From a virus, in the IMG/VR virus record IMGVR_UViG_3300019132_000038: a DNA stretch of 64,000 nucleotides; one strand, 5' to 3'. The position numbers were made by a program, and so were the translations under genes. Position 1 is the first letter of the stretch; each line of letters begins with the position of its first letter. Below are positions 2,181 to 64,000 of the stretch, in pieces. The notes below the pieces were generated by a model. The model searched no databases. It saw only the letters and a program-made list of their open reading frames with translations, and was not told the origin of the DNA.

Positions 2181-2186
2181 TAATGC

Positions 2187-2780: not shown

Positions 2781-2789
2781 TCCCACTGG

Positions 2790-2945: not shown

Positions 2946-2988
2946 ATTATTCAAAATCCTCCATATACTCAAGAATATAAACCACTCC

Positions 2989-3219: not shown

Positions 3220-3251
3220 CCTTTCTAATATAATAAATTACAAAAAAATTT

Positions 3252-3275
3252 TTTCACCAAATTCGCCGGAGGCGA
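3252..3275 (-). promoter_or_regulatory. GGA-triloop hairpin motif copy 4
   Basis: TTTCACCAAAT-TCGCC-GGA-GGCGA, upstream of 2989..3219. Confidence 0.55.
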
Positions 3276-3753: not shown

Positions 3754-3777
3754 TTCCAACAAATCTGCCGGAGGCGA
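3754..3777 (-). promoter_or_regulatory. GGA-triloop hairpin motif copy 5
   Basis: TTCCAACAAATCT-GCC-GGA-GGCGA. Confidence 0.4.
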
Positions 3778-4771: not shown

Positions 4772-7700
4772 TCATGAATAGCGAGTAACTGATTCCAAAT
4801 AGAACGTCAATGACTTCTTATTGACTTGAAAATCCTTTACTTTTGCAACAAATCTAGTTGCACCAGTAAAGAAAGTAACATACTCTGGATAAATCGAAGC
4901 TACACGTTGCTTCTTGACATACACTTCATGACGAAGATTGCCAAGTTCATCAGCTTGAACCATAACTGCAATATGATTAGCCCAATTTTGAATCATATTA
5001 GCAACCATCTCTGGCGTATAACCCGGAGTAAAGTTACCAATGTTCACTTTCGTAACCTCAAGTTGATCAAAACGAGTTACTTGAGGTTCTTTTAATTTTA
5101 AGTGTTCTGTTCCAGACACCTTACGTAAAGCTGCAACAAATTGATGTTTAGCTACAACCCAAGGGAAACTTAACCCACGAGCAGGCTCATCCACCGTTGC
5201 GCCACGCTTCGAAGCTGAAACAGAATAAGTCATCTGATAAGCAACCAAGCCAATATAAGCTGGATCAAATTGTTCTGAAAGAGCCATAAACTCTGCTTGA
5301 CACTTTTCAGTAATAAAGTTGAGCGAATCATCTAGATCACGCTTCAACTGATTAATATATTGTTCTTTGGCATAATCACTTGCAAAAGAAATAAACTCAA
5401 GTTGAGACATTTCGGTATCAAACTTACGATACGCATTCGAAATAGCCGTATTGTACATAGATTTAATCATGCGTACATTACTTAAAACGGCCATTTGTTC
5501 CACATGAGACTGTGGCACTTCAACCACAGTGGAAATCGCACTGAGAAGATTATTCTCTGCATATTCACTTCTCAACTTCTTAATATCAGCAATAAATTCT
5601 TGTTCTTCCCATTTCAACATATATTCATGAACACGAGAAAGAACAGAATCATTCTGAATACCATTTGACTTCCCTTTTAAATGAGCGAACCAAGATGGAC
5701 TTGCCCAAACATAACGACGTAATTTCTTATTGTACGTTGCAACTTCTGCTGGTGGATTTTCAATGAAAGAAAGTTCTTCTTTCAATGCTTCTTCATATGC
5801 ACCACCATGTTTTGCACGGTCAATTTCCCAAGACTGAACCCATGCAAGTAAATCAATAAGTTCTTGGAGTTCATTCACTCTCTTAATAATCGCTTTTGCT
5901 GCTGACATACTGCCAGCTTCATAATGAGAACGACCCTTATACCACAAAGCACGAACCGCATCAGCAAGTTTCGTAGCATAATCCGTTAACTCACCAATAC
6001 GGTTTGGCTTTAACGTTTCTGCTACATACTCTAAAGATATTTCATACATCTTTAACTGTAACTCACGAGTATATTGACTCTTTGTAAAAGTAAATTTATA
6101 CTTAGACATATCCACTGTACCCTTAAATGGGCAACCATTGTCGAAGAGAATCTGCCCATTCTCTTCCCAATAGTGGATATCTAAGAAAGCAGGAGCAGAT
6201 TTGCATGCTTCTTCAACCGCTGTGACCAATTCTGGTTGAGTCATGCACAGTGATGTATCACCATCACAATCTGCTCCACCTTGAGAAATAGTATTAAAGT
6301 CATGGCACGACATAATAATCATGCCATCAAAAGCATCTTTCTTCATATAGCGTGAATAAGCACGTGCTTCAAGAACACGAGATTGCCCCATAGTCATCTG
6401 CGGATTACGAGCAACAGCTAGTTTGCCAACATACACCACATGACCATCTTTCTCTAACATAAAGCACGTACCAGGTTTAATTCCTTTATTCGGATTCACA
6501 AAAAGTTTTCCATTTTTACGAATCTCTTGATCCGTGCCACGCAACTTATACGCATCTAAAATCGCATACGGATCCATAATGATAAAACGATAATTCGCTT
6601 CAACCGGAATTAAACCCGATTTCCACTCTTTAATCAACTCTTGTAATAAAGAAAGAGCCTTTTCTTTCAAGAAAACATCTTGGTAAGAGTTCGGCGCATA
6701 ATGTAAATAAAACGACAACAAAGAAACAAGAGTAGAATCTAACAATTCATCTTGTTCCTCTTCTGAATACTCTTCAAGTTGCAACAAACGATCATGCCCT
6801 AAATACTCCTTCATCAATTCTACATCATGAAGTAACAATTTTGCACGATCCAAATGAGGTTTTAAAAGTTTAATCATAGTATCGGCACTCAATTTCATAC
6901 CATGTATAAATTGATACGGTAAACTCACATATCTCTTTTTAAAGCGCATTGGTGCTCCAAAAAGAGCCACACGGAACTGCAATTGAATATCTTCAATTAC
7001 ATCTTCCAACGTATCTGTAGAAGCTTTGAATGAAGACATTGGAATCACAATATCTTCTTCAAAATACTTCTCTAAATCTGGAATATACACAGCATTGCCT
7101 TTTACAAAACCGTTAAACAAACGAACAACACCATTCTGAAAATGACGGCCAAACTCCGCTTCCGCTAAAGTCTTAATACGATTATTGAAATACATTTGAC
7201 CATCACCGGCTACTTGTTCAATAGGATGATCAGCCGCATCAAACACACGACTTTTCTTTGTATCTTTGCCAAAAGCTTTAAACTTACCTTGTGATACTTC
7301 TGAATAAACATCTTCGACAATACGAAGAGATACATTTCCGCCGAGAATAGAAATATCACCATTCTCGTGACGTACTACTTCTTTTCCAAAACGAATAAAG
7401 TTCGACTTAACACTATTCGAAAGCGTTAAGCCAAAACGTTTCATAGCTTTGACATAATCTAATTCATAAACAATCTCACCATTTTTATCTTGGCCCTTCA
7501 CCTTCGCAAAGGCTAAAGGATTCATACCAAGAATATTCAATACATCCACAGGATGAATAATATGCTCTGCCACACCAACTACTTGGACTTGACGTTCTTG
7601 AGAAGGAGAACGCAAAGCATAACGAACCATACGTTCTACACCTTCATAATCAATATAACTCATTCCTAATCGAATAATATTCATCGCCTTTGTAATATCC

Positions 7701-8251
7701 TCTTCTTTTAACGGTTTTAAATCAATGAAGAAAACGTGAGGCAATACATATGCATACACCTCACGTTCTATAACTTCACCATCAACTATCTTTCTAACTG
7801 TCACCATACGTGGACCATCAAAAATAAATGGAGACAACATCTCTGCTGCATAAGAACCAGAAATCTCTTTATATCCTGATTTCTTATCTTCACCAACGAA
7901 GAAAGAATCAGAATAATTGCGAGTAGAAATATAACGACCATCAACAAATTCGATCGTATCTAAGTCTGCTTGTGCTACAATAACACGAATATTCTTGATA
8001 CGACGAAGTTTCTTAGGAATTGGATGAGATTCCAAGAACTTCTTAAATACATGAGCTTGTTGTGGTGCAACACCTGCCAACTCTACAGGATTCTCTAATA
8101 CCTCCACTACATTTGCACCACTCGCAACCGCTTCCACAACTTTAGAAAAGTTTTTCGTACCAATTGCCGTTAAAGGCGAAAAAGAAGCCAAGCGTTCAAC
8201 CACTTGGCTCACAGACTGAATAGGATTTAATACATTTTTCACATTGTTCAT
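4772..8251 (-). CDS. single-subunit two-barrel RNA polymerase, YonO / cellular RdRP-like
   Basis: 1159 aa; motifs RLFNGFVKG, VARNPQM and catalytic QGGADCDGD (DxDGD) in the order found in the QDE-1/RdRP-YonO family. Confidence 0.85.
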   Translation of the reverse strand: MNNVKNVLNPIQSVSQVVERLASFSPLTAIGTKNFSKVVEAVASGANVVEVLENPVELAGVAPQQAHVFKKFLESHPIPKKLRRIKNIRVIVAQADLDTIEFVDGRYISTRNYSDSFFVGEDKKSGYKEISGSYAAEMLSPFIFDGPRMVTVRKIVDGEVIEREVYAYVLPHVFFIDLKPLKEEDITKAMNIIRLGMSYIDYEGVERMVRYALRSPSQERQVQVVGVAEHIIHPVDVLNILGMNPLAFAKVKGQDKNGEIVYELDYVKAMKRFGLTLSNSVKSNFIRFGKEVVRHENGDISILGGNVSLRIVEDVYSEVSQGKFKAFGKDTKKSRVFDAADHPIEQVAGDGQMYFNNRIKTLAEAEFGRHFQNGVVRLFNGFVKGNAVYIPDLEKYFEEDIVIPMSSFKASTDTLEDVIEDIQLQFRVALFGAPMRFKKRYVSLPYQFIHGMKLSADTMIKLLKPHLDRAKLLLHDVELMKEYLGHDRLLQLEEYSEEEQDELLDSTLVSLLSFYLHYAPNSYQDVFLKEKALSLLQELIKEWKSGLIPVEANYRFIIMDPYAILDAYKLRGTDQEIRKNGKLFVNPNKGIKPGTCFMLEKDGHVVYVGKLAVARNPQMTMGQSRVLEARAYSRYMKKDAFDGMIIMSCHDFNTISQGGADCDGDTSLCMTQPELVTAVEEACKSAPAFLDIHYWEENGQILFDNGCPFKGTVDMSKYKFTFTKSQYTRELQLKMYEISLEYVAETLKPNRIGELTDYATKLADAVRALWYKGRSHYEAGSMSAAKAIIKRVNELQELIDLLAWVQSWEIDRAKHGGAYEEALKEELSFIENPPAEVATYNKKLRRYVWASPSWFAHLKGKSNGIQNDSVLSRVHEYMLKWEEQEFIADIKKLRSEYAENNLLSAISTVVEVPQSHVEQMAVLSNVRMIKSMYNTAISNAYRKFDTEMSQLEFISFASDYAKEQYINQLKRDLDDSLNFITEKCQAEFMALSEQFDPAYIGLVAYQMTYSVSASKRGATVDEPARGLSFPWVVAKHQFVAALRKVSGTEHLKLKEPQVTRFDQLEVTKVNIGNFTPGYTPEMVANMIQNWANHIAVMVQADELGNLRHEVYVKKQRVASIYPEYVTFFTGATRFVAKVKDFQVNKKSLTFYLESVTRYS

Positions 8252-44764: not shown

Positions 44765-47689
44765 ATGGTACAGTTTGAACAATATGAAAACCTGCCAGGT
44801 GTTAAAGTTTCTTATGAAGATGGCAACCTCCACACAGGAAATCAAGTAGAACAAGCATCTACTCAATCGATTCTGATTATTGGAACTGCTATCGATGGTC
44901 CTGTTGGAGAACCGGTGTCTGTAAACGCTATTGGTGGTCCAAAAGTCGCTGAGCAAATGTTTGGCGGTTTATTGGAACGCAGAAAAGTTGTAGAGAATGG
45001 AGAAGAAAAAACAATTAAAGTGCCACATCAGGGAACATTAATCCGTGCAATGTGGGAGGCCATTCGTGCTGGAAATGAAGATGTACGTTTATTGCGTGTA
45101 TCTGGTCGAGCAGCCAAAACAGAATTACCTGCAAAAGATCCAAATAGTGAAGTTGTACAACCATTAGCAGATGCAATGGGCAATAACTTAATTCCGGGAA
45201 ATATCCCATTTCAAAAAGCATTGGGATTAACTTCGACTTTGCGCTTAGTAAAGATCGAAAAAATTGAAGAATTTGCAGGCACAGATACAACTGTTGCACC
45301 ACTTCGCACATTCCCGGATTCAACAGGTTATGAGTCTGTGGATCCAACACCGGGTTCTGAAACTGTTTATTTCCGTAAGGATACATTCCGCCCGAAAAAC
45401 ACCATTAAAATTACGTATAAAGCAAAACAGCGTAATTACACAGAAGTGACCCGAAATGAAGATGGAGTAAATAATTCATCTACTAAAGGGGTATTAACAC
45501 AAGATCCAACGATGACAAACTATTTCGCTGCAGAAGTTGGAAACTGGTCAGATGATCCAATGCACCAAGTAAACGTGTATGTAGTGGATTCTCAAGGAAA
45601 CGTTCATACAATTCCAATGGTTAATTCATCTGGCGAACGCTTGTGGCGTATCGGTAAGGGAGATCCGACAGTAACCGATGAATTACGTGATGTCATTACA
45701 GCTGAAGAATTCAAGCAAGGTGGCATTCGTTTTACATCAGCTTATCAGGCAGAAGTAGCTAATGGCTTATATCCTGCATTAAATTCTGGTATTCGGGTTC
45801 TTGCAGATTACTTCTATTACAACGATGTAGAAGTGGTTGGTTCCGTGACACAACTTGTGCCAGGCGCAGAGAAAGTGACTTTCTTGAAATTTATGCCTGA
45901 TTCTGGAACCCTTGAAGTGTATTACGAGAGAAATGGATTTAAGAGTGTACTTGTAGAAGGGACAGACTATACACTCGTATTTCCAAATGATTCACAAGGA
46001 AAAGTAGAAGTTCGCATTCAGGCAGGTGCAGGCCCTGTTGGTGCCAAACTATTCGCTCACTATAAAACAGGTGAAAATAACACACAAGGAGCTAAATTGA
46101 TTGTTAATGCTCTATATGCGGGTAAATTGTACGGTGGTATTGAAGATGTAAAAGATCCGTCTACTCTATACGGGGTTAAAGTGGTCGTTGAGTATGAGGT
46201 AAATGAAAACGGCACATTAGATATGGAGAACCGTGTAATCCGCTTTATTAAGCCAGTCGATAAAAAGACAACATCTAATGATAATGAATTACGGTTCCGT
46301 ACAAAAGAATTGAAAGGCATTCGAACACTTCGTGAGTTTGCTAACTATGTAAACGGTCTTCCTCAAAATAATATTGTTCACTTAGAAGTTCCATTAAATG
46401 CAGGGGATGTTCCGCTTACAGGATTGCTTGTTACGGATTATACAGTAAGCCCAATTGATGGTAGATATGATTATCGACCAATTAATCTTGGTGAAAAGTA
46501 TGATGAGGAAACTATGTCATTCCGCTTGTTTGTAGATGACAGTAAACAAGACAATGACCCAGATCGCTTTCCGTGGTTAGGTACAGATGGTTTCTTTGAT
46601 CCTAGCAACTTGTTAGATATGAAGAAGCTGTATGAAGCTCTCGGCGGTAAATATCAATTAGTAGAAGGAACGCTAGATGAATATGAGTTAGTTGAGCAAG
46701 GTATTTACTCTAAACTTGAAAACTATGCCGTTGACATCATTGTTCTTGAAGGCGTATATGCCAATACTGCGATTGGAGATATTGCCGAAGATGGGTCAAT
46801 CGTAGTTTCTCAAAATAAAAACTTTGCTACACAGCTTGCTCAGCACTGTGCCATGGTCACAGCAAAAACATGGGAAACTATCGGTGTCATTGGAACTGCT
46901 CCAGCTCCATTTACGGGACTTCGTGAAGTTCAAGAATACATTGATTTACTGACAAAAGGTGTAGGATTGAACGAAGAAGCTGAACAATTCTACCTCAGTC
47001 GTGGAATCAATCCTAAGTATCAGAACTTCCATTACATGTACAACCTTGCAACACATGAGCAAATTTTCAATGATGAAGGCGATCCTATTGATATTGGCCG
47101 TTACATTAACGTTGTATATGGTCCGGAGGCTGGATTAGCTCATGAGAAGCTTGGAACTTATGTCGTAACTGGTTCTATGATTTATGCAACTCTTATCTCC
47201 CAATTAAATGCTGAAGTTTCAACAACGAATAAACCAGTGCCAGTACTTGGTTTGCGTTATCACTTGTCTGAGGCACAGCACAATCAATTAGCAGGTGGAC
47301 GGTATGTAACTTTTGAGGGCAAATTAAATCTCAATGGTACTCGAACAGTAGTTGTGAAAGACGGTGTAACAGCTGCTGCTCCAAATAGTGATTATCAGCG
47401 TCTATCTACGGTTCGTATTGTTCATGCAACTGTTCAATTAATCCGTAAGAAAGCCGACCGTTTCATTGGTCTACCAAACGGTATTGCTCAACGAAATGCA
47501 TTAGCTACTGAGATTCAAGCAGGACTCGATCGATTAAAAGAATTGGGTGTTCTCCAAAACTTTAAATTCTCTATTTTCTCTTCTTCACGTGACCGTGTAC
47601 TTGGTAACGCCTTTATTACATTAGAGCTAGTACCTGCCTTTGAAACTCGCAAAATTTACACAAGCGTTGCACTGAGAGCAAGTTTATAA
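44765..47689 (+). CDS. contractile tail sheath protein
   Basis: 974 aa; LPGVKVSYED, IIGTAIDGP, RLSTVRIV, ITLELVPAFE. Confidence 0.85.
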   Translation: MVQFEQYENLPGVKVSYEDGNLHTGNQVEQASTQSILIIGTAIDGPVGEPVSVNAIGGPKVAEQMFGGLLERRKVVENGEEKTIKVPHQGTLIRAMWEAIRAGNEDVRLLRVSGRAAKTELPAKDPNSEVVQPLADAMGNNLIPGNIPFQKALGLTSTLRLVKIEKIEEFAGTDTTVAPLRTFPDSTGYESVDPTPGSETVYFRKDTFRPKNTIKITYKAKQRNYTEVTRNEDGVNNSSTKGVLTQDPTMTNYFAAEVGNWSDDPMHQVNVYVVDSQGNVHTIPMVNSSGERLWRIGKGDPTVTDELRDVITAEEFKQGGIRFTSAYQAEVANGLYPALNSGIRVLADYFYYNDVEVVGSVTQLVPGAEKVTFLKFMPDSGTLEVYYERNGFKSVLVEGTDYTLVFPNDSQGKVEVRIQAGAGPVGAKLFAHYKTGENNTQGAKLIVNALYAGKLYGGIEDVKDPSTLYGVKVVVEYEVNENGTLDMENRVIRFIKPVDKKTTSNDNELRFRTKELKGIRTLREFANYVNGLPQNNIVHLEVPLNAGDVPLTGLLVTDYTVSPIDGRYDYRPINLGEKYDEETMSFRLFVDDSKQDNDPDRFPWLGTDGFFDPSNLLDMKKLYEALGGKYQLVEGTLDEYELVEQGIYSKLENYAVDIIVLEGVYANTAIGDIAEDGSIVVSQNKNFATQLAQHCAMVTAKTWETIGVIGTAPAPFTGLREVQEYIDLLTKGVGLNEEAEQFYLSRGINPKYQNFHYMYNLATHEQIFNDEGDPIDIGRYINVVYGPEAGLAHEKLGTYVVTGSMIYATLISQLNAEVSTTNKPVPVLGLRYHLSEAQHNQLAGGRYVTFEGKLNLNGTRTVVVKDGVTAAAPNSDYQRLSTVRIVHATVQLIRKKADRFIGLPNGIAQRNALATEIQAGLDRLKELGVLQNFKFSIFSSSRDRVLGNAFITLELVPAFETRKIYTSVALRASL

Positions 47690-51382: not shown

Positions 51383-51555
51383 TGTTTCCATTTTGGCAAT
51401 GTATTCAGACCATTCGATTCGACCCACGAGTGAATCGGTCTTACGGAGATGGACAATGGTGCATTCAAGAATGTTGGGCTATTTATTTTCGTAGACGTAT
51501 CGAATTGTTAGAGTTAGACAAGGAGGAGTTCTCTCATGGAAGAAGTACGATTTGA
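51382..51555 (+). CDS. small hypothetical protein (57 aa)
   Basis: TAATG overlap with the previous stop and overlap with the next start; not in ORF track. Confidence 0.4.
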   Translation: MFPFWQCIQTIRFDPRVNRSYGDGQWCIQECWAIYFRRRIELLELDKEEFSHGRSTI

Positions 51556-54500
51556 AGAATATATGGGACGAGAAAGGCAAACCACTCGCTTTTTCCATGA
51601 TGAGAAGGAGCGGGAACAATTGCCTTTAATTGCAGAAGTGGGAATAGGTCTTGCAGCAGTTGCCGGACTCCTTGCAGCTGGGCATCGAACTGGTGTCATT
51701 CGTCGTATTGCTCAGTTTCTCGATATAGAAGCCAAAGCTACCGTTCGAGCGGTTCGGGAAACAATGGATCAGCAGGGAAGTTGGTTTCGGGGAACTGATA
51801 AACTAACCGCTAGACGGATGAAAATATTAAAAGAAAGTTTTATCAATCGGAGAAAAGAAATCCTTCAGGATCTTAAAAAAGGCTCCAAAGATATCCTCTT
51901 AAAAAGAGAAATGGATATGGAGCGGTATTTGAATCAACGCAGACAACTCATTGGAAAAATTCGAAATATGGGACAATACGAAGGGGAAGTACCTTATCAT
52001 ATTCAAGAAGGATTTCGTTTCGCAGCAGTAATGGATGATATTCGTCAGAACTCTCAATTGCCTACCGAGGCGATTCAAGAATTAGAAAAAGCATTAGCAA
52101 AAGGGCGTAATGGAATCCTTGATTATGGGTCAGATGATCAATTGCGTTTACTGTTGCAAAAACATGGAAAAGGCCTCAATACAGATGAGGTTTGGAAAGC
52201 ATTAAAGACAGCTAGAGAGAAATACCGGGGCAAAGATTTTATTGCTGAAAATCCAGATGCTCGCCGACTCGTAGAAGGAATGCAAGAAAAATTAAGAGAG
52301 TTTACAGCCCTTCAAATGCAAAATATTACGAAAAAAGATCATCTACTTAAACAAATGCGAATTGGACATAAGCAAGCTACTGTCGGCGATATTTTGCGTT
52401 TAGAAGAAGCTGGTAAAATTCGAATGAATGCCGATTTAAAAGCACAAATTCAAGAAGTCTTGCGTTATAACAAGGATTTCAAAAAAGCAATTTTTGATGA
52501 GAATCTCTATATTTCTACTAAAAATGATGAACTAATAGATTATAAGGTATTTAGTGATATCCGAAGGAGAACAGCAGAATGGTGGGCTAATACAATCCCT
52601 GGTGGTCTGTTGCACTTGCGGGATATCTTAAATGTAAAAACCGCCCGAGAACAAGCAAGTTTTCGTATTTTTGAAAGAGGAACCATTCAAGCTTCTTTGA
52701 ATGCCCATCGAGGATTTGAAATTACTGAACCTCTAAATGAAGAAGTTATCTTTGTGAATGGTAAATTTGTAAAGCTCTTTGACTATGATGCAATTAATAA
52801 TAATGCTCCCTTAGAAATCTTGAATCCAAAGCGAGACATGTTCCTAACATCTTCTCAGTTTGGTTCAATGGGAAAAATGCATCGTCATATGTCAGGACTT
52901 ATGACAGATAACGAATCTCCTCGGAATATTATATCTTCTTTCTTTGATATCGGACGACAAGATAAAGATAGTGTCTTTATCCAAGGTGTGAGTGTCTTTA
53001 CGAAGTTTTTTAAAGACGATTGGGAACGAAATAAAATGAAATCATTCATTAAATACGGGATTAATACCCCAGAGGATTTTTTTGAATTGAACACATATTT
53101 CCGATTGAATACAAAAGGGTTTAGTGCACGGTTATTAAATAATTTAAGAGGACACTTGCCTCGATCTATAGAGGAATTTATTGAAAGGGAAAACGTTAAT
53201 TTTTCAAGACAGGAAGATATCTTAAAACTATTTAGTCATATCGGTGAGAAGGAAATCAAGCGAAAGGGTAGCCCTTATACGGAGCTTGTCACATTGTATC
53301 GACAATATCGTCGCAATCCAGATGCCGTATTAAATCGAAAAACGCCTGTTGGAGAAAGTAATCCGATTTTAGGGCACCATACTCATATTCAGACTGGATA
53401 TGATGTGATTCATCAGCAAACCAGCTTATATCTCTTGCAAGAAATGTTGATGGCTCGGCCGGGAAAAGGGATTTATATAGACCTTGCCAATCAGTTTCGA
53501 AGAGAACTGCAAGGATTGTATTACGACGGTAAAATTTTTAAAGATGAGTTACAAAAAGCAGAAGAACTATTAAATTACAGTATGTTTCGTTCTCAAGGGT
53601 TTGATTTTTTCGAGAATCGAAATGCAGCTTTAAATCGTGTTAGTTACTTATTCCAACATAATGAAGAATTCCAGGATGCAATGAGAAAAATGGTTCGGCG
53701 CACTAACCCAATGTGGGAACGCTTCTCGGAAATTCGTCCAATTAACCAAGTGGAAGATGAATATGTAGCTATTAGTAAATCAAATATAGGAGGCATTTTT
53801 AATCGTATTATCGGATTAAATTCAAGTCTTAAAGAGCGAGCACAAGCAGCAGGAGAATTGTTCCGTCAATGGAGTCCATTTACAGGACGACGCAATATGG
53901 AAGATGTCACTCCATTTACCCTGTTTGGTGTGTATTATCCAGTATATCGCTTACAAGATGCACTCGGTAATGCAGGATTAGGATTTTCCGATCAATCAAT
54001 GGGAAATACCTTCCAAATGTTTTCTGCTCTTATGTGGAAGCGAATTTTCCCGGTGTATGGTACCGTAGAAGGCATAAAGTATATGGATTGGAAAATGGAT
54101 CAATGGACAGGAGAAGGTCTTGATGAGCGATGGGAAAACTATAAAGCACAATATCGTTTAGAGAAAGCATTGGAGCGAACACCGGAAGAAATCTATCAAC
54201 TTAAACGGGAGCGAATGCTTCGACCAGGTATTGAACATTGGGAAGCTATGCCGGATGTTCACATTCCGGGAATCGGCCCTGTTGGAGCAGGAGATTTCTT
54301 AAATTTATTGTTTGCTCCGTTGATGGGTTATGCTCCTCTTCGAGAAGAAGATATGATGACTTACGATGAAACTCTCCATGATTTGTATTACGGAACGGAA
54401 GAAATCCGAAAATCCCGTTGGTGGCTCTTTGGTTCCAAGTCAGCATATCGTGGAGATCGGATTATTGAATTTGCTCCAAATTCGTTCCGTTTAGCACATA

Positions 54501-55717
54501 GCGATTATGAATGGACAAATACAAATGCAACCGGAGAAGAATACTGGAGTCATCATTTATTACCGACACTCGAAAATCCATTAGGAGGATTATCTTATCT
54601 TTTCGGACTTCGTGACCCATATTGGTGGGAGCGAAAACATTACTATGATCGTCCGTATTTATTAACAGGCGAATTGTTCAACCCGAACACGATGGTGTTA
54701 GGAGATATCGGCAATGCAACAATCGGACGACTCATTAAACCAGTGCAGGAAATGCATCCGGAATATTGGAGTGATCCAATCCTTATTTATGAAAATGAAA
54801 CACAGTATTTAGGGGATCGGCCAACAGAACCGGTTCGAACTCGAATTTCTCCCGGAGGTCGAATTGAACATGATGTTCTTGCCACTCCTGCACAGTATGG
54901 AGTAACAGAGGGGATTCAGAAAATCGAAGTCGTAGATGAGGATGGAGAAGAAATCAGAGTAATGAATCCTGAAATTCTAACAAGAGGATCAAACGCAAGA
55001 TATGTGATGACTCTTGAACTGGACGATGAAGGAAAAACAACAGGAGGATATGTGGCCACTGATTTGGAAGCCAATGAAAGTATTTATGTCCCTGCTAATA
55101 TTGCACAAGAATTGACACTGGAAGAAGCATTCCGATATGCCGAAACAGAAAACCCACAGGGAACTCAAGTCAAAGCGGTGACGATTTCTACTCATAATCC
55201 AAGCTATCAAACATTAGTTAGCACTCAGCCACGAGCCATGATGGATGAAGAATTTGCCTATCATCAAGACATTTTGTATCGAAAAATGGTGAACATTCAA
55301 GATCCACGAGATGGATCATGGAGATTGAGAGAAGGTTTTGAAAACTGGACAGAACCATTAGGTGTGTATAAATGGATTTTAGGAGACGAGTTGATTGGAT
55401 ACGACCCATATAAAGGTCAATCGGTTATTCAGCGAGCCGATGTAGCCTACAATGCATCCAATCGTTTCTGGGAATCCGAATTAGGTTCTCTTGGTTCTCA
55501 GTTGTCTGAGATTGGTCGTCGTTTTATTCGGCGGGATAGCTCACAATTAGAGAAATATAATCCTATTCGGAACACTATGCCAGACTGGTTGCCAGGAGAT
55601 AACTATTTTATTAATTTCCAAGTAGGAGATCCATACTCAAAGATTCCAAATGGAGAACGACGTTTACCGGGAGAGGCATATGAAGCTTTGCATGAACTTC
55701 ATCCAGATGAGACTGGT
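51536..55717 (+). CDS. giant virion protein (tape-measure position), exon 1
   Basis: 1394 codons to the U splice site; follows tail chaperones; spliced product ~2008 aa. Confidence 0.75.
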
Positions 55718-56923
55718 AAAATATTTGCCTGTCTATAAACATGGCACGAATTGCTGGAAACCCCTTAGAGCCTTGCGAGCTACAACGGAACCGGTAACGG
55801 TAAACGTGAATGCTTGAAAATCGCAAGGATTGGGCAATCAGCAGCCAAGCATCTCTGGAAACGGAGATGAAGGTTCAGAGACTATCGAAAGCTCCTACTA
55901 TATCTCACCCTGACGAAACATGATATAATGGAGCAAGTAGAGTTATTTTACAGTGATGTAAAATAACGGCGTGCCATTAATTGCAAGGAGGATGTGTATA
56001 ATGAAGTCATTGCATCAAAATAAAGAATGGTTAGAAGAACAGTATTCAAAGTATGGGACATCAACAATAGCAAAAATGGTCGGAAGAAATGATAAAACAA
56101 TACAATATTGGTTGAAAAAGTTTAATATACCAATGCGAACAAGAAGTGAATCAATGAAAATAACCGAAAATCGCATTCATACTGTTGATGTCGATTATTT
56201 TAAAGAAATTGATACGGAAGAGAAAGCATACTTTTTAGGTTTTCTTATGGCTGATGCGAATTTATCAATCAGAACTGATAATAAACATGTAGAAACAAAA
56301 AGCATAGATTTGACCATTCATAAAAGTGATGTTGAAATATTGATCAAATTAAAAAATGCAATTAAATGTAGCAATGAAATTAAACCAAAAGGAAACAATA
56401 TGAGATTAGCAATATATAATACACACTTTGCTGATAACTTGATTCATTGGGGTATTGCTGCAAATAAAACAGGGCATGAAGTTTTTCCAAATATATCCGA
56501 ACATTTAAAGCACCATTTTTTAAGAGGATACTTTGATGGTGATGGATGTATTACTTGGAGTAAAAACGGGAGACTTCGAGGTAAAGTTCATTTTGTTAGC
56601 GGATATGAAATGATGAAAGGTATTAAAGATTTTATTGAGAGCAAAGGTGTACAGTATACAGATAAATCATTGCATCCTAAAAAGGGAGCAAATGCTTTTG
56701 AATTAGAAACAGCTACATTGCCAAATATAGCAAGAATATATGACATAATCTATAAAGATGCTACTGTTTTTTTAACCAGAAAGAAAAAACATTTTGATGC
56801 ATTTATGGAGCAATATATTAATTCTCCTATTGCAATTAAAAGATATAGTCCGACCTTATACCGAAAGGTATAAGAGGCAAGCAGAAATGACTTGCCCCTC
56901 CTTTATTGGAGAGTAACAATGTG
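55718..56923 (+). mobile_element. group I intron 3 (1206 nt) with homing endonuclease
   Basis: GAATTGCTGGAA, AATCAGCAGCCAAG, GGTTCAGAGACTA, AAGATATAGTCC; IGS GCCTGTC (55727-33) vs exon GACTGGT; terminal G; splicing gives PDETG|KYGAFDK. Confidence 0.9.
56001..56873 (+). CDS. LAGLIDADG homing endonuclease
   Basis: AYFLGFLMADA and HFLRGYFDGDG; AAGGAGG RBS before ATG 56001; lies between the R and S elements (P8 loop) and reads through S. Confidence 0.9.
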   Translation: MKSLHQNKEWLEEQYSKYGTSTIAKMVGRNDKTIQYWLKKFNIPMRTRSESMKITENRIHTVDVDYFKEIDTEEKAYFLGFLMADANLSIRTDNKHVETKSIDLTIHKSDVEILIKLKNAIKCSNEIKPKGNNMRLAIYNTHFADNLIHWGIAANKTGHEVFPNISEHLKHHFLRGYFDGDGCITWSKNGRLRGKVHFVSGYEMMKGIKDFIESKGVQYTDKSLHPKKGANAFELETATLPNIARIYDIIYKDATVFLTRKKKHFDAFMEQYINSPIAIKRYSPTLYRKV

Positions 56924-58768
56924 AAATACGGAGCTTTTGATAAATTTAAAATTTTGGCAGATGTGGCTCCGTGGAGTGATGAATATAAATTCTGGAGTCA
57001 ATATCTCCTAGATAACTTAGAAGATCCGGAATTGCGACAAGAAGCAGCCGAAATCCGCAGACAAGTCTCCATGCGGAAACAAAAATATGATTTTCAACCA
57101 TACCGATTTAAAGGACAAAATCTCGTATATGAAGAAGTAACTGTAAAAAAGTTTTTAGATGATTACACGTTTTTAACTGAAGAATTCGGAGATCAGCCAA
57201 TCCGAATTGCCGGAGTAGAATATCGCAAAAAAGCATCAGGAGTACTGCAAAATTACTTCCAAGAAGGAGACAAAGTGGTTATTGGAGTTGCCGCTGATCC
57301 AACGCAACGAATTGCTAATGACACTTACGGAACGATGCGAGCCGTTATTTTTAATGAATTAGGAAATATCAATCAAGATATTATTCGTCGTGGTCGCATG
57401 GTCGAAAACCTGAATGATTTCTCTCCTGCGGGCGTGCATGCTCGTTTTACTCCGGAGGAAATTCGAAGAGGGGCACGATGGGAAACAGTAGCTCATGCAA
57501 GTACACCATTGAATACCAAGTTCTTGCAAGTGCGAACCGCTTTAGAGGAATACGAACGAGATCAGATTTATGGAAAAGACTGGGCAACATGGGAAAACTT
57601 CATGCTAAGTGACTATGTTATCCCAACCTTGCAAGGATTAGGACGTTTTGATAGTCCATTGTGGTCCATGGCAGCAGGAGCCGTAACCGGACTTGTTCTT
57701 GGTCGCTTCTTTTTACGAGGAGGCCGACCAACCAAAATTGCTGCAATATTAGGAGGATTGTATGGTTTAGGCTCTAATTTCTTCTTTAAATACTATGAAA
57801 ATAAGCATGGTGAAGCGTGGATTCCAGAGCGTCGAAGAATTGAACATGAAATCAATGAGTATTTCGATATCTTAAAATACCTCAAATACGAGGGACTCTA
57901 TCAAAAAGCAAGAGAAGAAATTGCTCATGCCACGGGATATGATATTGAAGATTTGGCTCAATTGATTCAAAACCAAAAAGAATTAAACAAGCAACGAAAA
58001 GAGGAACTGGAGGCAGAAAAGAAACGGCTTTATATTGAGCAGCCAAAAGGATGGGAAAAGCGCAGAGAAGAGATCAATCAAGAACTAGAAACAATTTCTT
58101 TAGATTGGGAAAATCTCTATTTGCCAGAAGCCTTCTTGCAAGCATTACAGTATCGACAAGAGCGTGATACCACATTATATGCGATAGATCCATATGGTGA
58201 TCGTTTGCAAGTCATGAGAGCTTTTCCGTACAAAGACAAATGGTTCTTTAATGCGTTTGTTGAAGCGAATCAAGAAGAACGAGAACGTATTTTGGAACTA
58301 GTTCCTGAAAACCAACGCCGGATTTATAAGGCTATTTGGGGAATGGGGCTTGAACCTCAAAAGCCTCTAGAGTATTACATGCAAAAATACCGAATCCCTG
58401 ATTGGACTTGGGAAGGCTGGCGACCGGAATATAATTTGGAAGACATTAAAGTCAAAGTAGTTCAAGAATATGGATTAGATTTGTCTGATTTCAATTTCTG
58501 GGAGGATGATGTAGAAGCCTCTCAATACGTTCCAGACTTGCATCCAGATGGAAATGAGTTTAAAGGTGAACCGGCTTCCAACTTTACTGGCTTTCAAGCA
58601 TTGCGACAAAATCTGATTCATATTCTACAAGGATATGGCTTGCAAGATGTTCGTGTTACCGTATATCCATCCACTGGCTCTGAAACCAATGTTCATTTCA
58701 CCTATACTGAAGACCGAAGTGAAGAGATTGAAGAACATCTCCGCAAGTATGGAAGCCGATATGTGTAA
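56924..58768 (+). CDS. giant virion protein, exon 2 (contains SNase-like segment)
   Basis: In frame with track ORF 56906; junction restores the reading frame. Confidence 0.75.
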   Translation, partial: KYGAFDKFKILADVAPWSDEYKFWSQYLLDNLEDPELRQEAAEIRRQVSMRKQKYDFQPYRFKGQNLVYEEVTVKKFLDDYTFLTEEFGDQPIRIAGVEYRKKASGVLQNYFQEGDKVVIGVAADPTQRIANDTYGTMRAVIFNELGNINQDIIRRGRMVENLNDFSPAGVHARFTPEEIRRGARWETVAHASTPLNTKFLQVRTALEEYERDQIYGKDWATWENFMLSDYVIPTLQGLGRFDSPLWSMAAGAVTGLVLGRFFLRGGRPTKIAAILGGLYGLGSNFFFKYYENKHGEAWIPERRRIEHEINEYFDILKYLKYEGLYQKAREEIAHATGYDIEDLAQLIQNQKELNKQRKEELEAEKKRLYIEQPKGWEKRREEINQELETISLDWENLYLPEAFLQALQYRQERDTTLYAIDPYGDRLQVMRAFPYKDKWFFNAFVEANQEERERILELVPENQRRIYKAIWGMGLEPQKPLEYYMQKYRIPDWTWEGWRPEYNLEDIKVKVVQEYGLDLSDFNFWEDDVEASQYVPDLHPDGNEFKGEPASNFTGFQALRQNLIHILQGYGLQDVRVTVYPSTGSETNVHFTYTEDRSEEIEEHLRKYGSRYV

Positions 58769-58783
58769 AAGGGAGTGGATTAC

Positions 58784-61700
58784 ATGAATGAACCATGGAA
58801 CCAAACACCAGAAGATATCCGAGTGAATATTGTATTACCTAAATCAAAAGATTTAAAAGTCGTTGCCGTTTCCGATCCGGTCTATTATCAAGACCGGACG
58901 GATCCCGAATATGAAAAACGAATTACTCGTCATATTGATTTTCTGAATCGGCAATCGGCAATTTTAGAACGGGATAAAAACTCGTTGGCTCTTGAAATGC
59001 AAGAACTCATGCGTAAAAAAGAGACGATAATTTATGATGGACAACGAGTATATCGCTTGTTTCATTCCTTAAATCAACGACACAATCAACAAACTTTAGA
59101 GCTATTTGAAGAGTTTTATCGTAGCCTAAAAAATAATCAAAATCATTATATTTTTGATATCGAAACATTTGGAGATGTTCATGATCGACAAAAACCATAC
59201 AGCATTTCCGAGATTTCAATTAATGAATTTGACCGACAAGGCAATTTGGTTCGCAAAGGCTATAACACCGTTTTGCGACAAGATCAAAAAACAGTAGATT
59301 ATTTGCAGCAACTTATTGATGATATTCGAAAAGACAAATATGCTTACAATCGTTTAGAAGATTGGGAAAAACGGAGTCTAGTGGATTTAATGCGTTATGC
59401 AAGCTATATGAGTGAGTATGATGAACATGCGTTTTCTCATAACCTTAAAACTCAAGAAATCCAACATCATTCCATTATTAAATCGGTGTTTGACCACCAA
59501 GACCAAGTGCATCATGGAAAGGTATTACGTAATATTGACCAATATCTTTTGTATATGCAATCAGGACTTGATTATCTAAAAAAACATGGTACACCAGTGC
59601 AAACAGCATTAAAACAGATCGAAAAATTATTTCAAGAGAATGCGGATCGTTTTTTCCTTACTTATAACGGGTTAGTCTTTGACTGGCCAGTGTTAAAAGC
59701 TTTTGCAGAAAAACATGGGGTCACTTTGTCATCTATTAAACATCTTGACTACTTAAATGCCATTCGAACCGTATTTTCGGACTCTGATGTATTAAAACGA
59801 AGAATCAATCCAGATTTTCAGCGGAGTGCATACAGTAAAGATAAACTAGCTGCTATGCGTCAAGCATTAAATTTAGAAACACAAGATGAAGCGCACAACG
59901 CACAAATTGATACACATGACACAGCAAAAGTGATAGCTGCTACCTATGAACATCTTCATCAAGAAATCCAAAATTCGAAATTTCCGATTCGAGAAGGATT
60001 CAACTATCATCCTACGTATTTAACATGGAATGATGAGCCTCTTCGTCACGGACAAAAACTATTTGCCATTGGAGGAGCAATGGCCGTACAAGATGGAGAC
60101 GAATCTTTCCGAGTGACCTTAGATGAAAATGGAAAATGGGTGCCTGTCACTAATGATTTCAATAAAACCGTCATTAATAGTAAAACCTTCTATGAATTTG
60201 CTGGTATGCAGAAATTAGAAGAAGGACAGCTGGCATTTCGATTTTTTGATCCAGACCGAAATGAATATGCCTATATTGTTCGTAGCGGAGAACATGCATT
60301 TCAGGAACTGCAAGACTTTGTACAAAGTCGTTTTTACAATTGGGATGGATTAGACCCTCAATATCAACGAGATATCTTGCACGCTGCTGAAGCAGACCGA
60401 GCCCGTCGTCGTTATCAGCGTTTCTTTAGTATGGATGGAGCCGGCAAAGGATTGGCAATTATAGATGGGGAAATCGTCGAAAAAGGGACAGCAGGTTTTT
60501 CTGGCTTAAAACGAATGATTGCCAATGCCGAAATCATGAAAACTCATTTAGAAAGTAAAGGAGCCCAGTATCGTGCCAAAGTAGAAGAACTCATAGCACA
60601 AGGAATGAGTCGAAATCAAGCCAAAAGAGAAGCACGAAAAATACGGGCACATCAATTGCCAAATCACCTAGATTTTGAAAGTTTATGGGATGAAAGTCGG
60701 CAGAAATACGTTATTAATGAAGCAGAAAGAAAGCAATTCTTTAAAATGTATAAGCGTTTAATCGATGAACTTCCATATCTAAAAGAGGTAGTAGAAACCA
60801 TTGATCAAGAATTTGCAGAAGAAATTCAACAAGCAGCTGCTATCAAAGATAACCGAAAACGACGCAGGGCTCTTATGGAGATTAATCAAAAACGAGATCA
60901 AGCCCTTATGAATTACTATCGATACATGACAGATGCCGTGGGAGAACCTGAACAAGAAAGGACATTAAAAGAATTTGAAAATCGGCGTTTGGCTTTTTAT
61001 GACCCGGAAGTAGACGATTATCGCACCTTGGATTTTACCACTGTCAAAAGTGCAAGAGATAGTTTATATCAATATGCTCGACGTGGCACAAAAGAAAGCC
61101 GTAATCAGCAAAAAGTGATGAAAGAGCGGTTAGATTTCCTTTTTCGTAATTTACAAACTCAGCATATCATTACTCCAGGTCAATACTCTTATTACTCCGA
61201 TGTATTATGGAACACCGATTCGGTATGGCATGCAGCAGGAGAGATTGCTATCAATATGAGACAACGAAATAACGGAAAATATGAAACTACCTTAACAGAG
61301 CCATCCATGATTCAAAATCAAAATATTCAGCAGCTTACCAAAGAACAAAATCGACAGTTTATTCAAAGAGCTATCGAGGACACTCGTAATGCTCAATTGA
61401 TTATCAATATGGACTCAGCAACAGGTAAGAAACTGATATTAGGTGAAGAAATAAGAAAAACATTAGAGATTTTGGATCAACAGCGTTTCTCACGACTAGA
61501 ACCAAAAAACTATGAAGCATTAGAAGAATTGATTGCAAGTATTCGTAAAACTGATCGTACGAAACAAATTGCATTAGTAATGGATACTCATTCTAATGAT
61601 GGATTAATGAAAGCCTATGTCTATAACGGAAAAGATAGTATAACAGTTCGCAATCAATTAGCTCGAGGAACAACTCCTACACAAGCGTTAGAAATCGTCA

Positions 61701-64000
61701 TGCCTTTGATTAATCAGGCCGGCACACATAAAGTAGGAGGCTTGGTATTAAATGCACATAATATAGCTGTTCGAGAAGGAAAAAATATCGAGTTAATTTC
61801 AAGTGCCCAACATATTGCACGAGGATATGCTGATAGAATGGGATCTATTATGAAGGTATTCAATGAAGGAGATATAGAATGGGCCAATACACTCGCACGA
61901 CGTACTCTTCGTAATCAAATTGAAAGCATGTCAGGAATCCAGAGAAATATGGAATTCGGAGAAAACGACACATATGTATGGGCGCAAAATCAGTCCGACA
62001 TGTTAAAACAAGCACACGTCAAGCTAGGTAATGCTATGGTAGAAGATTTGTTTTACAACGGCTTTGAAGGTGTGCGACTAACAGAAAAAGATTTCTACGA
62101 TCCGGATGATGTGTTTATAGATGACGGACATGGAAACCGAATCTTGCGCAAGGGTGTAACTTTAGAAGATGTAAAAATGGAAACCAGCCACAAGATGCTG
62201 ATGCTCATGCCTAAATGGGCAGAGGAACGGTTAAAGATTCCTTTATTTACATCTTCTGTGAAAGCTGAGCACGTATCCAAAGCGATTTTATCAATGGAGG
62301 ACATTCGCCAACTGATTCCTTATGGTACATTTTACAATCACGGCCGTGATAACGCTGTACAATATATGAATGCTTATCTAATTAACTCTCAAACAGAAGA
62401 ACGTTTAAGAAATATTAAAGGAGTCAGTCGGGATAGTTTATTGAAAACTCCTCGCCAACTAGAATATGAGTCTATTCAGCCTAACAAAGTCAGCATGAAT
62501 ATGAGAATTGCTTATATGACGCAAGATGAACTACGTAAACGTGTAGAACAAATGATAAAAGATTCAAGAGGGCAACAACTTCTTTCCGAATTAGGATTTT
62601 TAGATGAGACAGGAAAACTTCAGTATGAAAAACTACCACGACTGTATGAGCAGCAGGGCATTATTGCTAAAGATTTAATGGATGCGTTAGAAGTCAATAA
62701 TGAAAAGCGATATGACAAAGGAAAACGATTTGAATTAGAAAAAGGGTTGCAAATAGGTAGCACTATTCAACCAGGTCAGTTATTAGGATACCGAATCCAT
62801 GATAATGGATACCGAGAAGCTATACGTTATGAAGGCACCAAAGTAGCCCAGCTTATTGATGGTGTGGAAGAAGGACGAGATTTAATTGTACGTTGGCAAA
62901 CCCAACCATTTAAATTTATGCTTGACGGCGAAAAAATGACCGATTCCCCCGTAGATCGTCGATTTATTGAATATCTTACTGGTCGAAATGACATTGTAGG
63001 GATTATTAACCCAGATGTGGCGAAACACCACGACTTTGGAATGTTAATGTCGGGGGAAGCTAGATTGCTAGCTGAAGAAATTAAAAAACTAAGCCCATCC
63101 AAACAAAAAACCGCTAGAAAAATTATTGAAAATGGTGGTATTGGGCTCAAGTGGAATCAAGAAATGGGCGGGTTCATTGATCATAGTTTTGATTTGCAAA
63201 TTGCTCGGGAACAATTTGATAAAGTATTTGAGCAACTCAACAAAGCCAAAATTCGTATTTCTCCAATAACTCCAACAGGATTGCGTATGGGTATTTTAGA
63301 AGGCCGTATGTCCAAAGTAGCCAATTATAGTAAAGTGATCGACCACAACGGAAGGCAAGTGATTGGCTATGAAGAAGGATATAATGCTGAAACTGGCGAA
63401 TACGAAGTTCGTAAAGTATATGCAGATGGCAGAGATGGAGTACAATGGGGACACCGAGAGATGGGGGTACTAAAGAGCTATGGGTTAGAGAAAACCTATC
63501 AACATGTTCATCAAATTATGTTGGAACAAGCTCAGCAAACTCATCGTCTCCAAGAAACTAGAGCCGTTGCTGAATCATTGCGATATCTGACACATGAGGA
63601 TCGTATTCAAACAGAGGCATTGAACATAGAAGACTTTGACTCTCTTCCAGAAATGTATCGTAGTGAGAATACGTACAAAGGAACGATTTTTGATCGTGAA
63701 AAAGTAAAAAGTTTAGTAAGCCAGTATAAAAATCATAATGCCATGAATGAGCATGGTTTCTGGCTAGAATTGCCTTCAGTAAAACGTCCTGATGGTAAGC
63801 TCGATAAAGTTACGATCCGCATGGACGAGACAGGGACATTAAAAGAAATTGATAAAATCTTTATTCCATTTACGAAACTGGAAGGGGCACATGGCGATAT
63901 CCATTTGCGGGATTTGCAAAAACAAATTGCTCGTATTTATGAAAAAGCGGAAGAAGTGCAACGAGCAACCAGTCTTCAAGATGCACGAATGGCCCATCAA
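58784..64000 (+). CDS. giant DEDDh exonuclease / RNA polymerase beta-beta'-like fusion protein, 5' part
   Basis: GGGAG RBS and ATG 58784; no stop in the segments I translated, and its absence from the track fits a frame with no stop codon in the window; FDIET / YNGLVFD / AHNAQID exonuclease motifs, then ordered beta-like motifs incl. GVQWGHREMGVLKSYG. Confidence 0.75.
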   Translation, partial: MNEPWNQTPEDIRVNIVLPKSKDLKVVAVSDPVYYQDRTDPEYEKRITRHIDFLNRQSAILERDKNSLALEMQELMRKKETIIYDGQRVYRLFHSLNQRHNQQTLELFEEFYRSLKNNQNHYIFDIETFGDVHDRQKPYSISEISINEFDRQGNLVRKGYNTVLRQDQKTVDYLQQLIDDIRKDKYAYNRLEDWEKRSLVDLMRYASYMSEYDEHAFSHNLKTQEIQHHSIIKSVFDHQDQVHHGKVLRNIDQYLLYMQSGLDYLKKHGTPVQTALKQIEKLFQENADRFFLTYNGLVFDWPVLKAFAEKHGVTLSSIKHLDYLNAIRTVFSDSDVLKRRINPDFQRSAYSKDKLAAMRQALNLETQDEAHNAQIDTHDTAKVIAATYEHLHQEIQNSKFPIREGFNYHPTYLTWNDEPLRHGQKLFAIGGAMAVQDGDESFRVTLDENGKWVPVTNDFNKTVINSKTFYEFAGMQKLEEGQLAFRFFDPDRNEYAYIVRSGEHAFQELQDFVQSRFYNWDGLDPQYQRDILHAAEADRARRRYQRFFSMDGAGKGLAIIDGEIVEKGTAGFSGLKRMIANAEIMKTHLESKGAQYRAKVEELIAQGMSRNQAKREARKIRAHQLPNHLDFESLWDESRQKYVINEAERKQFFKMYKRLIDELPYLKEVVETIDQEFAEEIQQAAAIKDNRKRRRALMEINQKRDQALMNYYRYMTDAVGEPEQERTLKEFENRRLAFYDPEVDDYRTLDFTTVKSARDSLYQYARRGTKESRNQQKVMKERLDFLFRNLQTQHIITPGQYSYYSDVLWNTDSVWHAAGEIAINMRQRNNGKYETTLTEPSMIQNQNIQQLTKEQNRQFIQRAIEDTRNAQLIINMDSATGKKLILGEEIRKTLEILDQQRFSRLEPKNYEALEELIASIRKTDRTKQIALVMDTHSNDGLMKAYVYNGKDSITVRNQLARGTTPTQALEIVMPLINQAGTHKVGGLVLNAHNIAVREGKNIELISSAQHIARGYADRMGSIMKVFNEGDIEWANTLARRTLRNQIESMSGIQRNMEFGENDTYVWAQNQSDMLKQAHVKLGNAMVEDLFYNGFEGVRLTEKDFYDPDDVFIDDGHGNRILRKGVTLEDVKMETSHKMLMLMPKWAEERLKIPLFTSSVKAEHVSKAILSMEDIRQLIPYGTFYNHGRDNAVQYMNAYLINSQTEERLRNIKGVSRDSLLKTPRQLEYESIQPNKVSMNMRIAYMTQDELRKRVEQMIKDSRGQQLLSELGFLDETGKLQYEKLPRLYEQQGIIAKDLMDALEVNNEKRYDKGKRFELEKGLQIGSTIQPGQLLGYRIHDNGYREAIRYEGTKVAQLIDGVEEGRDLIVRWQTQPFKFMLDGEKMTDSPVDRRFIEYLTGRNDIVGIINPDVAKHHDFGMLMSGEARLLAEEIKKLSPSKQKTARKIIENGGIGLKWNQEMGGFIDHSFDLQIAREQFDKVFEQLNKAKIRISPITPTGLRMGILEGRMSKVANYSKVIDHNGRQVIGYEEGYNAETGEYEVRKVYADGRDGVQWGHREMGVLKSYGLEKTYQHVHQIMLEQAQQTHRLQETRAVAESLRYLTHEDRIQTEALNIEDFDSLPEMYRSENTYKGTIFDREKVKSLVSQYKNHNAMNEHGFWLELPSVKRPDGKLDKVTIRMDETGTLKEIDKIFIPFTKLEGAHGDIHLRDLQKQIARIYEKAEEVQRATSLQDARMAHQ

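Follow-up and report, generated by a model that had tools for sequence, protein, structure and literature searches.

What kind of protein is encoded by a frame of several kilobases in the tail module of a phage, and when in the phage life cycle would it act? This question is raised by a giant gene at the right-hand end of a 64,000-nucleotide stretch of viral DNA (IMG/VR virus record IMGVR_UViG_3300019132_000038; hereafter the window). A first-pass annotation, read by eye, had proposed that the gene codes for a DEDDh exonuclease fused to a single-chain beta-beta'-like RNA polymerase, and having followed up the proposal computationally, we hold this identity with high confidence. The window corresponds to G000:C1:9417-73416 of a viral record of 215,870 bp whose two ends match, from a jumbo phage of Bacillus type, and the gene runs past it into the continuing sequence, L002, in which positions L002:6913-6915 are G000:C1:75103-75105.

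The open reading frame (ORF) listing gives a single open frame at 58775..64000 (+), with 1742 amino acids (aa) in the window and an open 3' end. The ORF extends a further 1,689 nt and closes on L002 after 2304 codons counted from GTG 58775, with its stop at L002:6913-6915. The true start is almost certainly the ATG at 58784, giving a product of 2301 aa, since a GGGAG lies 8 nt upstream and the homologue N-termini begin at the corresponding residue; the TAA stop of the upstream gene is at 58766-58768. The start coordinate of 58784 given earlier was thus correct, and the frame, described then as at least 1739 aa, is intact to 2301 aa, broken by no stop or frameshift. A 6.9-kb frame in DNA of 38% G+C, with 22 full-length homologues at 34-70% identity (word-indexed search), is far beyond chance. 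Residue numbers are counted from GTG 58775, and ATG-based numbers are lower by 3. The features of the gene are as follows.

58784..64000 (+), exonuclease-RNA polymerase fusion gene, part within the window; 22 full-length homologues and 91 representative clusters
58771..58775 (+), GGGAG ribosome-binding site, 8 nt before the ATG; read from the sequence
59084..59974 (+), predicted DEDDh 3'-5' exonuclease domain, residues ~104-400; profile, Pfam and AlphaFold model
59156-59164 (+), Exo I, D128/E130; conserved columns
59681-59683 (+), Exo II, D303; conserved columns
59894-59911 (+), Exo III, H374..D379; conserved columns
59975..61591 (+), middle region, residues ~401-939, charged helix-like sequence; no recognisable domain
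61592..63544 (+), beta/Rpb2-like half, residues 940-1590; invariant columns, AlphaFold model (pLDDT 91.6) and VIA-align
62345-62362 (+), GRDNxxQ with R1191, N1193 and Q1196; beta-like half
62648-62650 (+), E1292 of YEQQ; beta-like half
62912-62935 (+), invariant lysines K1380 and K1387; beta-like half
63452-63460 (+), HRE, residues 1560-1562; beta-like half
63545..64000 (+), start of the beta'/Rpb1-like half, residues 1591-1742; profile matches to beta' subunits
past the window, on L002 (+), SSKG..SASG, residues 1762-1781; beta'-like half
L002 5494-5511 (+), RYPTFH, residues 1832-1837; beta'-like half
L002 5602-5622 (+), NADSDGD, residues 1868-1874; beta'-like half
past the window, on L002 (+), bridge-helix-like helix of 30 residues, 1952-1981; AlphaFold model
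past the window, on L002 (+), helix-loop-helix with conserved K2007/H2008, residues 1986-2022; alignment and AlphaFold model

The polymerase core and the exonuclease domain

The polymerase core was aligned among 55 sequences that are 16-72% identical to the window protein, and the only columns invariant in all of them are Q1196, K1380, K1387, T1389, R1832, P1834, D1870, D1872, D1874, and G1965. Eight residues are common to all two-barrel polymerases, namely the Asp triad, the Arg and Pro of RxP, two Lys, and a beta-side Asp (PMC2919709); seven of the eight are invariant in the fusion family, with R1832 and P1834 being the Arg-x-Pro of the NRxPxxH motif (Rpb1 R446/P448). The single-chain order of beta followed by beta', which the first-pass annotation had read by eye, is borne out over residues 940-2110. 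The segments MPLINQAGTHKVGG, LIPY..GRDNAVQYMN, NMRIAYM..YEQQGII, IGSTIQPGQLLG, KFMLDGEK, DIVGIINP, and GVQWGHREMGVLKSYG are all found where it had put them, as are the beta'-clamp-like GFWLELP and IFIP..DLQKQIARI, and the DxDGD that it predicted past position 64000 is present as QNADSDGDYSH (residues 1867-1877, L002 nt 5599-5631).

A search of PDB sequences with the 55-sequence profile (hmmsearch) returned only RNA polymerase largest subunits, the best matches being PhiKZ gp55 (4.7e-7), plant Pol V (7e-6), and bacterial beta' (from 1.6e-5). The profile alignment spans the KGKQGRFR-like SSKG block, RYPTFH/NRAPTLH, and ADSDGD/NADFDGD. With the single sequence (phmmer) and with an 18-sequence profile of the polymerase part, no match was found in the PDB.

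Structure prediction, which had been suggested as a check, yielded RNA polymerase folds by AlphaFold, Foldseek, and VIA-align. The AlphaFold model of residues 940-2110 (1,171 residues, from the 55-sequence alignment) has a predicted local distance difference test score (pLDDT) of 91.6 and a predicted template modelling score (pTM) of 0.88, and a Foldseek comparison of this model with the PDB gives at least 500 matches at E<=1e-3, every one of the top 50 being a beta'/Rpb1 or a beta/Rpb2 chain. VIA-align places model residues 1-651 on Rpb2/beta with Z of 15-17.6 (400-490 residues aligned, root-mean-square deviation 4-5 Å), in matches that cover almost the whole of Rpb2; for the beta-like subunits of the PhiKZ and AR9 non-virion polymerases Z is 15.8. 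We assign the beta-like half from this predicted structure together with its conserved residues. In the model, the 30-residue helix and the helix-loop-helix that follow the Asp triad may correspond to a bridge helix and a trigger loop. By alignment and predicted structure, residues 940-2110 are a complete, minimal cellular-type single-chain beta-beta' RNA polymerase core.

The AlphaFold DB cluster that best matches the core model (E 1.8e-27 over query residues 14-1169) is labelled 'DNA-directed RNA polymerase' and is a single chain of 1,052 aa. The best BFVD match is a metagenomic 'minor tail protein' (Siphoviridae sp. ctnpt50; E 1.2e-23, template modelling [TM] score 0.56), followed by uncharacterised proteins of Acinetobacter phage vB_AbaM_ME3 (a jumbo phage) and Microcystis phage MaMV-DC. 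All three sets of BFVD phage proteins have the whole single-chain polymerase fold, and, judging from such models, hidden polymerases of this type may be more widespread among phage tail genes or unannotated genes.

The exonuclease motifs FDIETFG (residues 127-133, nt 59153), TYNGLVFD (residues 296-303, nt 59660), and AHNAQID (residues 373-379, nt 59891) likewise lie where the first-pass annotation located them, with a helical insert of ~110 residues between Exo I and Exo II. Exo III reads H-x4-D, and the domain is therefore of the DEDDh subtype. D128, E130, D303, H374, and D379 are invariant in 18 close members, and among the aligned sequences of 65 relatives they are retained in 59/59, 59/59, 65/65, 61/62, and 61/62, respectively. 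Archaeal family-B polymerases are matched by the domain profile in their Exo II segment (E 2.4e-5); weaker matches are RNase T, TREX2, and MrfB. Pfam finds RNase_H_2 in 18/18 close members, DNA_pol_B_exo2 in 13/18, and RNase_T in 9/18; with the single fusion protein as query, RNase_H_2 alone appears, below threshold. An AlphaFold model of residues 1-460 has a mean pLDDT of 74.6, rising above 85 over most of the domain core, and has an RNase H-like alpha/beta fold for which Foldseek returns REXO2, the DnaQ domain, Orn, ExoI, ERI2, and TREX2 from the PDB, with probability 1.0 and TM scores by target of up to 0.70. The profile, Pfam, the model, and the conserved catalytic residues thus all bear out the DEDDh assignment, and the N-terminal domain is predicted to be a DEDDh/DnaQ-fold (RNase T-type) 3'-5' exonuclease.

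The enzyme domains that are predicted with confidence to be globular take up ~1,500 of the 2,301 residues, and ~540 and 190 residues lie outside them. The middle region has no Pfam or PHROG match, and an Atlas feature search returned unnamed clusters only, with a recognition score of 1887 compared with the 2300 that most known families reach. At the C-terminus, a module of ~150 residues joins a Gly/Ala-rich hydrophobic helix to a small conserved domain that has ...D(N/D)TxxLNRxW at its end. No segment of the fusion protein reaches the hydropathy threshold for a membrane helix, and no peptidase family in Pfam matches it.

Relatives and known systems

The 22 full-length homologues lie mostly on contigs of 190-225 kb, some of them in assemblies of Priestia megaterium, Bacillus licheniformis, Bacillus atrophaeus, Bacillus subtilis, Bacillus velezensis, and the Bacillus cereus group, and are annotated as 'hypothetical', 'ribonuclease H-like', or 'DNA polymerase III epsilon-like'. 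When 1.84 billion representative proteins were searched with a profile of residues 940-2110, 91 clusters (50% identity) were recovered, nearly all of 2,100-2,900 aa, and no cluster of the family is annotated as a polymerase. Almost every cluster has (A/G)DxDGD at about residue 1,800-2,200, and an N-terminal exonuclease is detectable in 65 long cluster members. Because the exonuclease and (A/G)DxDGD recur through diverged clusters, the fusion must be old and stable. Close homologues are found on replicon-sized contigs in isolate assemblies of several Bacillus and Priestia species, a distribution that suggests that related phages persist as extrachromosomal phage-plasmids or pseudolysogens.

A tblastn search of the whole protein against 50,697 phage records gave no match at 1e-5, and no PHROG family matches the fusion protein. 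A member in a cultured phage, gp034 of Bacillus phage vB_BauM_KLEB27-3 (2434 aa), was reached via the tail sheath and a profile; it belongs to the family by hhalign (E 1.8e-47) and by a further profile match (1e-104), and its GenBank label is 'structural protein'. A literature search found no description of the fusion family or of any exonuclease-fused two-barrel RNA polymerase, and no studied counterpart of an exonuclease permanently fused to an RNA polymerase of the two-barrel superfamily; nor did it yield confirmation of the first-pass statement that giant epsilon-exonuclease-fused polymerases had been noted computationally in Firmicutes elements.

By analogy, the best precedent is the tape-measure-fused virion polymerase gp96 of Thermus phage P23-45, which has a non-virion partner, gp64. 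P23-45 gp96 is a virion protein that transcribes the pre-early genes, including the gene of the second polymerase (Chaban et al. 2024, PMC10770324). The fusion is likewise a giant protein in the tape-measure position with a single-chain two-barrel polymerase carrying DxDGD, and the window phage also has a second, separate polymerase gene. In contrast to gp96, which is 5,002 aa long with an N-terminal polymerase followed by ~3,900 aa of tape measure with transmembrane and metallopeptidase domains, the fusion has its polymerase in the C-terminal half, an exonuclease at the N-terminus, and little sequence for a ruler. The gp96 polymerase lacks an exonuclease and belongs to the flat, clamp-less, phage/plasmid single-subunit clade, whereas the best matches of the fusion are multisubunit beta and beta' subunits and not gp96. 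The phages differ too, as the window phage has a contractile tail and its partner polymerase is of the YonO type and not a paralogue. In the survey of two-polymerase phages in PMC10770324, this motif variant and these phages are absent.

The fusion has GRDNxxQ, NMRxAxM, KxxxxxxK, HRE, SSKG, RxPTxH, ADxDGD, and possibly a bridge-helix-like helix in common with the PhiKZ, AR9, and cellular polymerases. It differs from these in being one chain of ~1,170 residues, about half of beta plus beta', and from multisubunit polymerases in having no alpha or omega partners, a much reduced flap and clamp, and an added exonuclease and C-terminal module. The phi14:2 gp66 and N4 virion polymerases are described (PMC10770324; bioRxiv 10.1101/2020.03.07.982082) as giant proteins that are packaged in the virion, ejected, and start transcription. 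However, gp66 falls in the other two-barrel clade, together with QDE-1 and YonO, and the enzyme of N4 is T7-like; both are capsid-packaged enzymes of podoviruses without an exonuclease, and neither is among the matches listed for the fusion. A possible distant relative, compared by description alone, is NCgl1702 of Corynebacterium glutamicum, a 2,169-aa beta::beta' fusion (Iyer et al. 2003, as cited in PMC2919709 and PMC7824862). As described there, it resembles the fusion in being a prophage or mobile-element giant of similar length with a fused beta-beta' core; those two papers mention neither an exonuclease domain nor a tail-module setting for it.

The positional counterpart in phage 0305phi8-36 is gp146, which lies between gp145 and the hub gp147, is 2,537 aa long, and has the same C-terminal module, with which that of the fusion protein aligns. 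It was found in virions by mass spectrometry and assigned as the tape measure from its length (PMC2147016), and only its last 60 residues could be aligned with its presumed homologue in BtI1 and BwK1, which are prophage-like elements of Bacillus (Hardies et al., PMC2147016). gp146 differs from the fusion in lacking a polymerase core (1% probability by hhalign; the profile matches nothing in the 0305phi8-36 genome). Homology of the fusion to gp146 beyond the C-terminus was considered and rejected, the overall sequence similarity not being significant. DEDDh-like motifs can be read by eye in the middle of 0305phi8-36 ORF146 (L003 33519-41132), as YLDIETTG ... NVADAD ... HLARAD. The fusion family bears on the label that gp146 carries, and its assignment as a 'hypothetical tape measure protein' may deserve a second look.

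Tail-module position and the proposed role of the fusion protein

The fusion gene belongs to a late structural operon, in which the genes for the tail sheath (44765-47689, PHROG E 2e-263) and the tube precede it. It occupies the "tape-measure" slot between a homologue of the 0305phi8-36 virion protein gp145 and the baseplate hub, and KLEB27-3 and two distant metagenomic contigs of ~200 kb have the same order of gp145-like gene, fusion, and hub. Its immediate neighbours are as follows.

51536..58768 (+), upstream neighbour, homologue of 0305phi8-36 virion protein gp145, in two pieces; BLASTP
L002 6921-13364, baseplate hub, 2147 aa, with a lysozyme-like/SLT domain at 1820-1934; directly downstream of the fusion

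We favour, with moderate confidence, a reading in which the exonuclease-minimal polymerase fusion is carried in the virion and transcribes the first phage genes; the virion polymerase proposed in the first-pass annotation agrees with the conserved tail-module position, which is indirect support. Delivery with the virion, taken on its own, seems somewhat better than an even bet, because the tail slot is conserved, the C-terminal module is shared with gp146, KLEB27-3 gp034 is labelled as structural, and an enzyme synthesized at the time of the tail proteins would serve the next infection only; from the slot, the module, and the label we infer packaging of the window protein itself. The fusion protein would be made late, alongside the tail proteins, would be incorporated into the particle through its C-terminal module, and would be ejected through the contractile tail at infection. 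The first phage genes could then be transcribed without the host polymerase, as the P23-45, crAss-like, and N4 virion polymerases do. The substrates of the exonuclease would most likely be those of the polymerase, with trimming of RNA 3' ends or processing of incoming DNA. It is rather doubtful that the exonuclease works in cis with the polymerase, either as a nuclease for proofreading or backtrack rescue or in a 3'-strand resection of the entering genome end that exposes hairpin promoters to the injected polymerase; in the former case it would be the first instance of a DEDDh editor built into a DNA-dependent RNA polymerase, with coronavirus ExoN as a parallel.

Several observations weigh against this reading, in the enzyme as well as in its packaging. 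The eighth of the common two-barrel positions (Rpb2 D837/E. coli beta D814) falls in YEQQ, where E1292 is near-invariant and a Gln stands where the Asp is expected, and K1380 and K1387 are spaced 7, not 8, residues apart (cf. Rpb2 K979/K987). The Asn preceding the Asp triad varies in the family, and a preference for nucleoside triphosphates (NTPs) over deoxynucleoside triphosphates (dNTPs) is therefore not readable from the sequence. The profile of the beta-like half alone gave chance hits only in the PDB, and no solved beta subunit. A folded core of 130 kDa cannot fit the tail tube, which leaves the packaging site and the passage through the tail unexplained, and the public runs that contain the viral record are biocrust metagenomes only, with no RNA runs. 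In 0305phi8-36 and MTATph1 the same tail slot is without a polymerase core, so the polymerase is not a fixed part of the tail architecture.

An active RNA polymerase might instead stay unpackaged, acting in the producing cell (on late genes, for example) or being kept for the phage-plasmid state. The support for virion placement is indirect, the YonO-type second polymerase makes a division of labour between two intracellular enzymes conceivable, and in assemblies of Bacillus isolates the relatives are carried on replicon-sized contigs of 190-225 kb. We nonetheless consider an intracellular role unlikely, as an enzyme first synthesized with the tail proteins would come too late for their expression, distant members strictly keep the slot between the gp145-like gene and the hub, and both the C-terminal module in common with the virion-detected gp146 and the structural label of KLEB27-3 gp034 point to the particle.

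A still less probable alternative is that the two-barrel core acts on DNA, making primers or synthesizing DNA with proofreading, and is delivered so that the injected genome can begin to be replicated or repaired. An analogy is offered by PolD of archaea, in which a two-barrel DNA polymerase is served by a separate exonuclease; a dedicated DEDDh exonuclease is a typical partner of DNA polymerases, the best matches of the exonuclease profile are proofreading domains of family-B DNA polymerases, and the variable Asn is one that cellular RNA polymerases have before the Asp triad. Yet the top sequence and structure matches are all transcription enzymes, with no PolD chain among them, and RNA polymerases are also matched by the SSKG..RxPTxH..ADxDGD block and apparently by the bridge-helix- and trigger-loop-like helices. 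It is very improbable that the protein is a tail tape measure, or another structural tail protein, whose enzyme-like domains are inactive relics. The assignment of 0305phi8-36 gp146, in the same slot, as a tape measure from its length (PMC2147016) speaks for this, as do the middle region and the C-terminal hydrophobic helix, to which no function is assigned. However, in a family otherwise at 16-20% identity no positions are better conserved than the catalytic residues of the two enzymes, which argues for selection for catalysis, and the ~1,500 confidently globular enzyme residues leave little for a ruler.

To our knowledge, injected phage RNA polymerases have been studied experimentally in three groups only: N4-like phages, crAss-like phages, and Thermus phage P23-45. 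If packaged, the fusion proteins would constitute a further, large family of injected polymerases, with ~90 clusters on phage or phage-plasmid genomes of ~200 kb. The relatives in Bacillus and Priestia assemblies and the cultured phage KLEB27-3 make experiments in tractable hosts possible. The core of ~1,170 residues would be among the smallest complete single-chain beta/beta' versions, which is useful for questions of minimal polymerases and of their evolution.

Neighbouring genes and a candidate promoter motif

Upstream of the fusion gene, the two pieces of the gp145 homologue lie at 51536-55738 (1400 aa, E 8e-34) and 56906-58768 (620 aa, E 2e-112). The gene is probably split by a group I intron carrying a LAGLIDADG endonuclease gene, and in the interrupted stretch (55708-56905) Rfam Intron_gpI matches flank the LAGLIDADG ORF, with E of 2.6e-7 and 1e-3, both under the gathering score. 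KLEB27-3 is split alike, into gp031, a 211-aa gp032, and gp033. Residues ~1057-1291 of 0305phi8-36 gp145 have no counterpart in the window phage. The baseplate hub downstream matches the PHROG 'endolysin' family phrog_20474 end to end (2046 bits) and has several hydrophobic segments. Other features of the window are as follows.

55971-56873, LAGLIDADG endonuclease ORF, 300 aa; Pfam
4772..8251 (-), second polymerase gene, YonO/QDE-1-type single-chain polymerase of 1159 aa with GADCDGD; PF05183 RdRP, E 1e-8, above the cut-off
111-3777 in the window, and G000:C1 8240-13190, 169098, 181127, and 208044-212964 (-), copies of a hairpin-plus-box motif; motif scan

The YonO-type polymerase of the window phage is like in kind to orf99 of 0305phi8-36. 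Kinship between it and the fusion was considered and rejected, with hhalign giving the core a probability of 0.15%, and PF05183 (YonO/QDE-1 RdRP) has no Pfam match in the fusion protein. There is no PF05183 match in KLEB27-3, which appears to carry the fusion polymerase only, whereas the window phage has both polymerases and 0305phi8-36 the YonO type only. Judging from these gene sets, co-inheritance of the two polymerase types is not strict.

With up to one mismatch allowed, 12 copies were found of a hairpin-plus-box motif that consists of (G/C)CC-TCC-GG(C/G) and then TTTGGTGAAA. Every copy is on the minus strand and none forward, and the reversed-motif control gave 0 and 1 copies; written out, the motif is CCTCCGG(N4)TT(N)G(N)TG(N)AA. 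No copy was found in KLEB27-3 (fusion only), and 0305phi8-36 (YonO type only) has one similar hairpin per terminal repeat, in what is a weak comparison. The motif is a candidate for a phage-specific promoter class and is assigned to neither polymerase. If the end of the entering genome were resected, these CCTCCGG-hairpin/TTTGGTGAAA motifs would mark single-stranded hairpin promoters. Most of the copies (10/12) fall in a ~21-kb arc that runs from 208 kb across the record ends to 13.2 kb and consists of short leftward genes, beginning just downstream of the YonO-like gene. Compensatory changes from GCC/GGC to CCC/GGG are seen in the hairpin stem.

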